Below are positions 3,001-64,000 of a stretch of DNA of 64,000 bases, piece by piece. How positions within the stretch are numbered: position 1 is the stretch's first letter; each line of letters begins with the position of its first letter. Location of the stretch: assembly GCA_976226885.1 (NCBI GenBank), contig OZ320320.1, forward strand, positions 37,448,001 through 37,512,000. The letters run 5' to 3'. The notes under the pieces are model-generated. The model was given only the letters and a program-made list of their open reading frames with translations, was not told the origin of the DNA and ran no database searches. Source of the DNA: Iphione sp. A-MEVVRFRX5. Taxonomy: Eukaryota. The position numbers and the translations under genes are program-made.

Positions 3001-4879
3001 AATGATTGGGCCAATAATGATAACATGTACCTGCAGAAGAGCCGCGGAAAGGACCAATTCGGAATCGGAATTTTGGCAGCTTTAGCAAACCTCTGTTACA
3101 ATCTCACAAAGGTGGCCCACGCCCCACTGCCGGCATGCCGACGTTTGTGCAGGATGAAAGCCCATTACTGCATGTTTAATGCAGCGCGTACTTTGTAACT
3201 GTTCACAAATAAGAGGCAAGTCCATTGAGCTCGCCCCCCACCCCTTGCCTTTTTACGATCACATATTTCATGCTGTTCTGTGCCCTGCCCGTGGCGCTTT
3301 ATGCACTGATGCCAGAGTATCAGCAATAAAACAGGGAGCCTGGAGTCTATCCTTCCCTCCCGAATGTACCCCGTGTTGGGTCGTATCAGCTATTGATATG
3401 AACGATTTTGACCCAAGCTTCCATGCCTCGTAACACAAACACGAACACGCTGACGAGCAACCTACACATTACCCTGCACACACACACACATATATATATA
3501 CACATATGGCACCAGGTGTCAATCCTCATCTTCCCACCTTGATAATAAAGGCACAGCATGGAGCTGTTTTCTCCCAGTATGAACACACATTCGATAGTCT
3601 CTTTGATAAAAAAAGAATAAATAAACATGTAGATTTTTAGTTTTCTCTACCCGCTTTGCATGTATCAAGATATACAAACACAGATACTCGGCAGTAAATG
3701 AAGTACGGTTTTGCCTGAAAATCAAAACTTCCACAGGGTAAGTTAGAAAAAAAAAATTAATCTTCCTTCACCTCGCCCTTCGTGTTCTCATTCCCATTTA
3801 TCAAGGTATATTTTAGGGAATGCATCTTAATTCATTTAACCCGTCGCAATGTCAATGAAAGCACCTGGTATGTGATGGAACGAAGGTAGTCGATAACTCT
3901 GACATGGAGTGTTCACAGTTAAAATGACTTTCTAGCCGCAATACCTTCGTGAAGCACTGGCCAGAACCCTGACCTGCGCAGTGCCCAGTGTTCCATAAAC
4001 CGAGAGACATGCAGCCCATATACCATGCAAAAGAGACTCACAGCATTTGACCATTCTTGGCGTCTGTGGGTGTATGATGCTGCTGGTAAATATATTGCTC
4101 CTATTGTTTAAGCTGGCTGATGCTGACGGTGGTGATATTTTATTACGACAGTGGCCAGTAATGACAAACAAAATGAAATTAGACATTGTTTTCTGCTTAT
4201 ATTACTTCGGTGGCTGACTACAATGGCGTCAGTTATATAATGGTACTCACTTAAATTATAATGAGTAGTTTTAATTATGGTAGACAAGGAGTTTTGCTGA
4301 AGTATTCAACTTTGGCTAGTGGTTCTCCTCGTTGATATTTCTGATACTTTAGTTTTTTGCTTCCTTTAATATGTTCTGGTCGTTGCGTGATTTTCTTTGC
4401 AGTGACACTCTACCGTCAGTAGAGATGGTCTCAATTGTATTGGTGCTGAATGATGAGACTGACAGTTCCACCAACGAAGTGCACTCTCGCCAAATACGTT
4501 TGCAGCAGTGTTATTGACAGGCCAAACATCATCTACTCAAGTGTCAGTAGCATGATAGTCCCATTCACTGTACTAACAAGAAAATCTAACTGGAGAAACT
4601 GAATAGTCTACTTAAAGTCAGCGACTTGAACGAGGATGAAATTATCAACAGCATTCAAGGCAAGGACAAAAGCCAAGGCCTTTAAACCGTGGCTCGCGTA
4701 GTTCTGCAACAGACCGTTAGGCGGATCATCTGACGTAGCCGAGACCTATATACCATATACCAACAGACACTATGACTCTGAATCTCCCATCATACCCATT
4801 TAAAGGTGATACGCATAGCTACGTCGGCCATACAATTGTCTGTATAGTTTAAGAGTATTGCTTATAGGACAGTAACACA

Positions 4880-62200: not shown

Positions 62201-62876
62201 TGGTTAGAGGATACAAGGAACTCACCCCAATCCTGCAGAAACACCCTCTGTGAACGAGTAAATGCCACAGAAGAACTCCACGTGCAACACTTCCAGAGAA
62301 AAAAGTACCTATAGGCCACGATTCGGGGGACCTACAAACCACGAACCAACCGACAAACCACCCAAACTTTCCTAGCCCTTGCCATAGATACAAGTAATCG
62401 GACCATCCGAGATGAATTACCAGGGAAAGGTTACAGTTTGATGAATGGCAAAGGAACGACCGGAAAGTAATGAAACTGTTATGAAATAGTGCGTGAAAGG
62501 CAACTTGCTGAATTTTGTGTATTGGTTAGCTATGGCGTGGAAGCGTAAATCAAAGCTATGATTGGTCATTCCATTCTCAGGGTTACAGTGCATAATATCT
62601 ACAGATGAGCCATCAAATGAGAACCAGTAAAAATAACTATATGATAACTATAGACTGAATGTGTACTTCCTTGTCGTTGCTACCCACGCATGTGTATAGC
62701 CTGCCACAGTGCAATTCGTTATATAAGTGATATATATTATATATATGAATATATGTCATAATCAGCACGATTGTGGTTATATTATGTACCATGGTAACCA
62801 GTTGCGTCATTGTATTCCATAACGACACTCCACTTGTTGATTTTGACGTGTTAAGACGTATCTGTTACAAGCTCCA

Positions 62877-63701
62877 ATGGAGAAGTACTGCAAGAAGTGT
62901 GACATGAAACATGTCTCTCCAGTTGGAAAGAACTGTAGGAGAGTGATCTCTGCTGATGATCCTGTAGTAGAGAATCCTATTCCTGTGGAGAAATCGTCAT
63001 CGGATCAAGTGGAAAAAAGGTTTCAAAGAATTGAGACGATGTTGGAAGCCTTGGCAGCGACAAGACCTAAGCCGGCCCAAGCAGAGAAGGTGGTGGATTC
63101 AAGTAGTTCATCGAGTGACTCTGAGGGCTCTTCAGACTCAGACGAGTCGAATAAGAAGAAGAAGAAGAGAGGTAAGAGGTCCAAGAAGTTGTCAATTTCG
63201 AAGTTTGTCAAGGGAGAGAAAGTGGAGACGTACGAGGATCTGGTGGTGGGCTCCATTGGTCTCCTTAAGAAGCTAATCTCAGAGGGAGATGATATACAGG
63301 GGTACATCGACCATGTGGCTTTTATTGCGGATAGGGCATCCACAAAAATTTACACTAATGCTTCACTGATTGAATATGACTATCAGATGAGGAAGAAAGC
63401 TAGAGAAGAAGGGCTCCATAGTTTTTGTTATGGAGACACCGTGTTGGTACATAGGTGTTTGAGCCTAGACGCGAGAGTGGACGTGGCAAAAGCTAAGGAG
63501 GCCAAGAAAAAATTGAAGAAAGGAAAGGGTGTTTGCTACAGATATAACAATGCAGGATGTGAAGATACCAACTGTAGGTTCAGGCATGTTTGCGAGACAT
63601 GCCTCAAGGCGGGACACAAGACAGCGGAGTGTTATGCGAGCAAAACGACAGGTGGGGACTCCAGCAGCGGTAAAGCGCGATCGGTGTCGAAGAAGGATTG
63701 A
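62877..63701 (+). CDS. Gag-like ORF1 of a DIRS/Ngaro-type tyrosine-recombinase retrotransposon (274 aa)
   Basis: N-terminal CxxCxxxHxxPxGxxC. Ser/acidic then Lys-rich linker. YIDHVAFI...LIEYDYQMRKK core. C-terminal CCCH finger (CYRYNNAGCEDTNCRFRH) followed directly by a CX2CX4HX4C knuckle (CETCLKAGHKTAEC). This arrangement is typical of DIRS-group gag proteins. Confidence 0.85.
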   Translation: MEKYCKKCDMKHVSPVGKNCRRVISADDPVVENPIPVEKSSSDQVEKRFQRIETMLEALAATRPKPAQAEKVVDSSSSSSDSEGSSDSDESNKKKKKRGKRSKKLSISKFVKGEKVETYEDLVVGSIGLLKKLISEGDDIQGYIDHVAFIADRASTKIYTNASLIEYDYQMRKKAREEGLHSFCYGDTVLVHRCLSLDARVDVAKAKEAKKKLKKGKGVCYRYNNAGCEDTNCRFRHVCETCLKAGHKTAECYASKTTGGDSSSGKARSVSKKD

Positions 63702-64000
63702 CTAGACAAGGACGTTACAAGTTCCTCTCTAGGAATAATGGAATGTGAGTGTGACATCATTGAATTTGTTCCTAGGATGATTTATTGGTCTTTTGAGGAG
63801 AAAGATGAAATGTGTGATTCAGTTGATGGTAACCAGGAGGTTACCAAGCGTGAGGTCATGAATGACGTTGAGGATGACGTAAATCATGACGTTGTTGATG
63901 TGCGTAGTACAGATGCACCGAGTCATCGGACACATGAGGCCTTGAAGGATTACATAATTCGAGGTGATCAGCATGGAAGTGGTGACATTACTGTGAGTAG
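63702..64000 (+). CDS. Open in-frame continuation after the gag stop; probable N-terminus of the element's next ORF (truncated by window edge)
   Basis: 99 sense codons (LDKDVTSSSLGIMECECDIIEFVPRMIYWSFEEKDEMCD...GDITVS) in the gag frame with no stop. First ATG at 63738. The other two + frames are closed by several stops. No catalytic motif is reached inside the window. Confidence 0.65.

Follow-up and report, generated by a model that had tools for sequence, protein, structure and literature searches.

A gag-like open reading frame in the 64,000-nt stretch of DNA analysed here (the window) ends AAG AAG GAT TGA CTAG (63690-63705), and the locus raises the question of whether this TGA (63699-63701), which closes a 284-codon stop-to-stop frame with an ATG at 62877, is a copy-specific nonsense mutation, an ordinary terminator followed by re-initiation, or a programmed leaky stop through which some ribosomes would continue into the next protein. 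An earlier reading of the letters alone (the sequence-only reading) had noted that CTAG directly follows the gag TGA and that the same frame then stays open for 99 codons to the window edge while the other plus-strand frames close quickly; all of this holds in the window, where the two remaining frames stay open for 0 and 14 codons. Followed beyond the window, the open frame proves to run for 684 codons in all, through reverse transcriptase (RT) as well as RNase H. TGACTAG by itself occurs 6 times within the window. A pattern describing the junction finds 143 matches genome-wide as against 14 for its reversed control; because of this excess, and because the arrangement is kept across diverged relatives, the junction is not a chance occurrence.

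Table 1. Features of the reference element. Positions are those of the window unless marked L031, the DNA adjoining and covering the junction, in which position equals window position minus 62000; a slash marks the exon-intron boundary of a donor-like site.
Feature	Position	Strand	Remarks
A1 terminal repeat	62721..62847	+	127 nt; 98% identical to A2 (L031 721-847 vs 4681-4807)
gag-like ORF	62877..63701	+	274 aa; C-terminal Cys/His knuckle (zf-CCHC_3 weak, E 0.03); ends in leaky-type TGA
D0, predicted 5′ splice donor GAG/GTAAGA	63169..63177	+	gag codon 99; first intron base 63172, phase 1
D1, CAG/GTGG	63649..63657	+	gag codon 259; nucleotide-constrained, GGT in 54/55 Gly codons
Probable readthrough signal GAY-TGA-CTA-G (stop 63699-63701)	63696..63705	+	conservation across relatives
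pol frame start	63702..64000	+	acidic, hypervariable linker of ~100 codons; continues past window; no conserved AUG before conserved core
D2, predicted 5′ splice donor T/GTGAGT	63744..63750	+	43 nt past gag stop; first intron base 63745, phase 1
A2, partner of A1, between B1 and B2	L031 4681-4807 (~2.7 kb past window end)
B1	L031 4636-4685		same as B2
B2	L031 4823-4872		same as B1

By layout and domains, the trees holding elements of genome G000 alone, we assign the element, which is intact, to the Ngaro-like tyrosine-recombinase (YR) retrotransposons and not to the DIRS1-like ones. The reference copy, on contig C17 of the 1.18-Gb genome G000, has the split direct repeats A1-ORFs-B1 A2 B2 that passages of PMC8547959 and PMC9210276 give as the Ngaro repeat layout, and the Ngaro-like domain order gag, RT/RNase H, YR. 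Its pol frame matches the Pfam models for RT (RVT_1, E 1e-22) strongly and for RNase H at E 8e-4. The YR frame, which overlaps the end of pol in the +1 frame relative to it, gives a weak Phage_integrase match (E 0.03), and in 33 YR frames the residues R149, H258xxR261, W284, and Y292, which we take to be the tyrosine recombinase catalytic motif, are near-invariant. The frame open at the window edge, which the sequence-only reading thought might reach RT/RNase H or a tyrosine recombinase, thus reaches the former but not the latter, and is pol; the DIRS-like label of that reading can be refined to Ngaro-like, as the repeats are direct, in place of the inverted terminal repeats with internal complementary region of DIRS1-like elements, and no family of the methyltransferase (MT) domain, which DIRS1-like and PAT elements carry, matches at E<=0.1 in the element, where pol stops shortly past RNase H. 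Ahead of RT, pol residues 113-180, which lie just past the window, form an invariant Cys-rich segment (C113, C118, C120, C134, C168, C174); no Pfam model matches it, and it may be an N-terminal, metal-binding domain of Ngaro Pol.

A DNA search with a query that included the junction gave 40 matches, and the 30 examined comprise 28 with TGA-CTAG, 1 with TGA-CTAA, and 1 frameshifted just before TGACTAG. An RT-only search, which avoids junction bias, gave 150 scored matches, and 90 loci were examined (the top 30 unselected, plus 60 picked mostly for long open frames); these relatives, clade A, have a median RT nucleotide identity of 65%, and 78 are left after clustering at 85%. Ahead of RT, the first in-frame stop is reached at 190-210 codons in 82 of the 90, and in all 82 it is TGA, followed by CTA in 81 and by CTG in 1, although the elements are related by descent and such counts are not independent events. 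The +7 base is G in 68 (giving CTAG), T in 7, A in 4, and C in 3; conservation falls from ~2 bits at +6 to 1.05 at +7 and about 0.2 at +8. The 8 other loci comprise 5 whose TGACTAG has lost the frame through an indel, 2 gag-pol fusions, and 1 without a gag junction upstream; among the unselected top 30, TGACTA stands at the expected distance in every one, in frame in 25 and shifted by a downstream indel in 5.

Other stops of the same elements show no such uniformity: pol ends in TGA, TAG, and TAA in 29, 25, and 17 of 71 elements, and YR in 17, 16, and 5 of 38. Nor is CTA a favoured codon, accounting for 11.7% of Leu codons, and when 82 conserved degenerate pol columns are compared, the CTA column has a top-codon frequency of 0.99 as against 0.66 for the next best and a median of 0.38. 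The junction thus offers one frame, one stop, and nucleotide-level conservation of exactly the readthrough motif. Of the TGA-CTAG for which the sequence-only reading had wanted conservation in other copies, TGA-CTA is near-invariant while the +7 G is preferred but not required; the copy-specific nonsense mutation that it had kept as an alternative fails, TGA being retained in every in-frame clade-A relative. The two fused copies, L063 (G000:C17:13585500-13591000) and L064 (G000:C1:83118500-83124000), have gag-pol frames of 965 and 1000 codons, the former through an in-frame deletion, the latter with CGA-CTA-G in place of the stop; both are singletons, but because most family members are too, we do not count them as dead ends.

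Querying with RT from a distant metagenome relative, we took 40 further loci in rank order, skipping places already examined and five unexamined places on the clade-A RT list. A stop stands at junction distance in 34 of them and is TGA in 33; after removal of two decayed junctions (L139, L145) and two members of clade A (L141, L160), 30 remain as a sister clade, clade B, with ~42% Pol identity and TGA in all 30. The following codon is here CGG in 9, CGT in 8, CTA in 5, another C-starting triplet in 3, and a non-C triplet in 5, for a +4 C in 25 of 30; four of the five elements without it have an intact YR frame. CUAG is found in two separate subclades of clade B (FastTree, direction of change not set). 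Overall, 115 of 116 in-frame junctions have UGA, and 97 of 116 have UGA-CUA or UGA-CGG, which passages of PMC3159437 describe as the type II readthrough motifs of alphaviruses, tobraviruses, and furoviruses.

Further afield, two loci were found on metagenome contigs and the junction in only one, L123, with 41% identity and gag-TGA-CTG-pol in frame; 8 junction-pattern matches in viral contigs include no relative. Protein relatives (255 matches, the top ones at 39-45% identity) come without DNA context; one protein cluster holds a 1,100-aa Gag-Pol fusion, P0141, with Trp after the Gag end, which a stop-to-Trp change or an indel would fit alike, and a search among 3,991 candidates for Gag homologues made longer by fusion found none, which is weak evidence.

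The codons right after the stop, before any Met, are under protein-level constraint. In 71 intact clade-A pol frames the first Met lies anywhere from codon 3 to 182, after the invariant Cys113/118/120 in 11 and not until Met189, itself invariant in 71/71, in 5; pN/pS (uncorrected) in the preceding region (reference codons 101-172) is 0.43, compared with 0.26 for RT and 0.87 for the linker, which has no in-frame stop (by selection in these 71) compared with means of 5.2 and 16.9 in the other frames. All 30 clade-B elements have a peptide motif at codons 16-28 past the stop, which stands before the first Met in 29 of them and varies synonymously (pN 0.20 vs pS 0.82).

These observations bear on the possibility that ribosomes start Pol at a downstream AUG (ATG 63738 or Met189), by re-initiation or internally, whether on the full RNA or from a junction promoter like that of Candida Tca2. 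ATG 63738 is in frame in the reference copy, Met189 is invariant, and PMC2194720 supplies the Tca2 precedent, but we consider downstream initiation very improbable: it fails on account of conserved Pol residues found ahead of the first Met, whose position varies widely and can lie past the invariant cysteines even though the region before it is constrained, and which nearly always follows the clade-B motif; it also leaves the invariable in-frame TGA and the open linker unexplained. ATG 63738 in particular, the start considered in the sequence-only reading, is not conserved. A different escape from the stop would be recoding of UGA by A-to-I editing to UGG or by selenocysteine insertion, either of which would likewise need an in-frame UGA rather than UAA; since the stop is not flanked by a conserved duplex, L031 600-5000 matches no Rfam family at E<=1, SECIS among them, and neither route accounts for the CUA/CGG constraint at +4 to +6, this is the least probable of the alternatives. 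It could also be that CTAG serves as a 3′ splice acceptor whose branch point is CTGAC, so that a short intron from D1 or D0 would remove the stop and fuse gag to pol in frame. The phases do match (both are phase 1), D1 is constrained at the nucleotide level, and splice signals are clearly present in the family, yet the acceptor AG is missing in 14 of 71 intact-pol elements scattered over many branches (as against 71/71 for the YR acceptor discussed below), the bases upstream are purine-rich with a pyrimidine fraction of 0.18 vs 0.82, the putative branch A is a mere 5 nt from the AG, and 25 of 30 clade-B junctions have no CTAG; we regard such an intron as highly unlikely.

We conclude that the conserved UGA-CUA(G) is very probably a programmed leaky stop at the gag-pol junction, yielding some Gag-Pol. 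The Gag-fusion polyprotein of the sequence-only reading is accordingly supported as an inference, with a frame that reaches RT/RNase H, a near-invariant TGA-CTA, and the failure of both alternatives named there. Weighing against readthrough are the lack of a conserved 3′ stem, the five non-C contexts in clade B, the two fused copies, the caution that Tca2 imposes, and the kinship of the elements.

As to the stem, the 3′ stimulatory stem-loop that is frequent, though not universal, in type II readthrough was not found: 60-nt windows starting at +3 to +60 have mean z of -0.02 to -0.26 in 78 elements, CUAN is paired in 18 of the 78, and no conserved structure is supported by RNAalifold (36 clade-A and 26 clade-B sequences) or by a covariation scan (57 elements). 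Excess stability downstream of the stop amounts to ~-2 kcal/mol relative to synonymous shuffles, and the hairpin drawn earlier at 63702-63732 folds at -6.7 kcal/mol with a z of just -1.4 and is not conserved. Upstream, the last 240 nt of gag (63460-63700) exceed synonymous shuffles in stability by 5-7 kcal/mol per 120 nt in clade A (36 elements), and the clade-B gag end has an excess of 2-4 kcal/mol per 90 nt with no shared structure found; the stable gag 3′ end is possibly a packaging element or a 5′ readthrough element.

The third protein, YR, brings in a set of splice signals. A YAG preceded by a pyrimidine tract (fraction 0.82) stands at the end of pol in 71 of 71 elements (L031 3690, past the window). 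From this acceptor the YR frame extends for 309-311 codons in all 33 elements in which it could be followed unbroken to its stop, the first Met falling between codons 2 and 119; in 18 of 71 elements a stop closes it 4-5 codons upstream of the acceptor. At D0, clade A has GGT in 53 of 54 Gly codons at codon 99, in an AG/GTAAG-like context, and clade B has G/GTAAG in 20 of 20 alignable gags (of 21), compared with 36 of 342 Gly-Lys pairs in pol. D0 and the YR acceptor are in phase with a sense junction, and would give an in-frame Gag(1-98)-YR fusion. D1 could be a weak donor or another cis-element; CpG avoidance accounts for part only of its constraint.

D2, at codon 15 past the stop, is present in 64 of 71 elements, and its junction with the YR acceptor would read TGA, TAG, or TAA in 63 of these 64, the exception having a C before GT; in the 7 donor-degenerate elements the junction would be a sense codon (stop in 0/7). 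The type of junction stop switches repeatedly on the tree and the donor has been lost in at least three places (a quick IQ-TREE run, not a full search). Clade B is without D2, and a junction stop would form in 5 of 23. TGT at D2 was discounted as evidence on its own, for where a G follows, TGT is favoured by CpG depletion (o/e 0.55); such depletion does not explain the GAG of D2 or the following T. An exon junction within 50-55 nt of a stop escapes junction-dependent nonsense-mediated decay (NMD), and the D2 junction is inside this zone. A further phase-1 donor-like site, G/GTAAC at pol codon 43 (63828-63834), is kept in the L033 subclade, including 5 of the 7 elements without D2, and would give a readthrough-dependent Gag-linker-YR fusion. 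The fused copy L063 retains D2 and a stop-forming junction, and could still obtain Gag by splicing, as in Copia; L064 has no D2 and a non-stop junction.

From these signals, alternative splicing probably joins different donors in the element RNA to a single acceptor, at the start of YR. The competing account is that D2 GTGAGT is an RNA element pairing with ACUGAC at the stop, or a U1 site that is never spliced, and that ribosomes enter YR from pol through a +1 frameshift. RNAalifold does draw 5 pairs between GTGAGT and ACUGAC, U1 binding has a non-splicing role in EVD (PMC5580714), and YR does overlap pol in the +1 frame; against this, the pairing is worth -0.42 kcal/mol and shows no compensatory change, the canonical acceptor is left unexplained, as is a junction stop found only where D2 is intact, and the YR frame is in some elements closed just upstream of the acceptor. 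We judge this account unlikely, though less so than the alternatives to readthrough, and retain alternative splicing as the probable source of YR.

Expression of the three proteins might then proceed as follows: i) the unspliced RNA would be the genome, translated to Gag and, by a minority of ribosomes on which a near-cognate tRNA decodes UGA, presumably at a level of a few percent, to Gag-Pol (RT-RNase H); ii) Gag-Pol would stay uncleaved, its halves joined by the acidic linker, because YR elements lack a protease according to passages of PMC3783388; iii) splicing from D0 would produce the Gag(1-98)-YR fusion, which would explain a YR without a conserved AUG; and iv) splicing from D2 would produce a Gag mRNA lacking pol, in which the stop formed at the junction would serve as a back-up and bar ribosomes that read through from entering YR. 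We lean towards the view that Ngaro-type elements carry such a complete expression code on one RNA, consisting of type II readthrough for Gag-Pol, a splice joining the basic N-terminal part of Gag to YR, and an NMD-safe (50-nt) back-up-stop splice, with UGA readthrough perhaps general for the pol of YR elements across eukaryotes.

The nearest parallels are the type II viruses and the human UGA-CUAG genes, which have the same stop and the same +4 to +7 motifs, both viral variants occurring here in sister clades; the viruses have a conserved 3′ stem where none was detected here, and the present case concerns a transposon instead of a host gene or RNA virus. Passages of PMC3159437 put readthrough at alphavirus motifs without the 3′ stem at just 0.2-2%; those of PMC9841425 give human UGA-CUAG genes from 1.5% to more than tenfold higher, and report that changing the mammalian UGA-CUAG motif from CUAG to CUAC cuts readthrough by more than half, which fits a +7 G that is preferred and not required in clade A. 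Murine leukemia virus (MuLV, a gammaretrovirus of type III; passages of PMC3159437) and Candida Tca2 (PMC2194720) likewise have an in-frame gag/pol stop setting the Gag:Pol ratio; both are DDE-integrase LTR elements with a protease, and MuLV uses UAG-G and a pseudoknot. The in-frame gag-UGA-pol junction of Tca2 failed to bring about readthrough in reporters assayed in yeast and contained a minor promoter (PMC2194720). In the Ty1/Copia element EVD a Gag-only RNA arises by alternative splicing near the gag end, but there gag-pol is one continuous ORF and splicing is coupled to premature termination (PMC5580714), whereas here the predicted intron takes out nearly all of pol, has the start of YR as its end point, and occurs along with a leaky stop. 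The Ngaro superfamily (order DIRS) shares the A1-gag-RT/RH-YR-B1A2B2 layout, the lack of an MT match, and a YR overlapping the pol end, but in passages of PMC8547959, PMC9210276, and PMC3783388 it is described with separate or overlapping ORFs, without an in-frame gag/pol readthrough stop or YR splicing.

The readthrough mechanism itself is already known; what appears new is its use in Ngaro-like elements, the interchange of CUA and CGG, and the predicted splice architecture. Neither readthrough nor YR splicing is described for DIRS-order elements in the literature searched, including passages of PMC3266345, PMC3783388, PMC6681497, PMC7192593, PMC9210276, PMC8547959, PMC9341512, and PMC12440569; the founding Ngaro papers and Repbase records may mention an in-frame stop. 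Nor do the passages searched explain how pol and YR come to be expressed in DIRS-order elements, where their frames overlap and often have no AUG; to this question the family offers a specific, testable answer covering all three proteins. The family is also a natural mutagenesis library, in which >100 diverged junctions within one genome delimit the signal to UGA-CUA(G), show its interchange with UGA-CGG, and lend support from an independent system to the motifs known in viruses and mammals. Annotation splits such elements into separate ORFs, for which start codons are invented, and could mistake the in-frame stop for decay.

Some features of the family deserve mention for their own sake. G000 holds well over 100 of its elements, mostly singleton, mostly intact, and with 60-80% mutual identity, an unusual composition that suggests many lineages persisting at low copy number. 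L152 (G000:C19:40128950-40133750) has a 3′-extended pol of 917 codons and a YR acceptor one base off relative to its close relative L164. Four RT matches with identical scores and ~5.4 kb spacing at G000:C22:24584035-24600690 look like a tandem array of one clade-B-like element.
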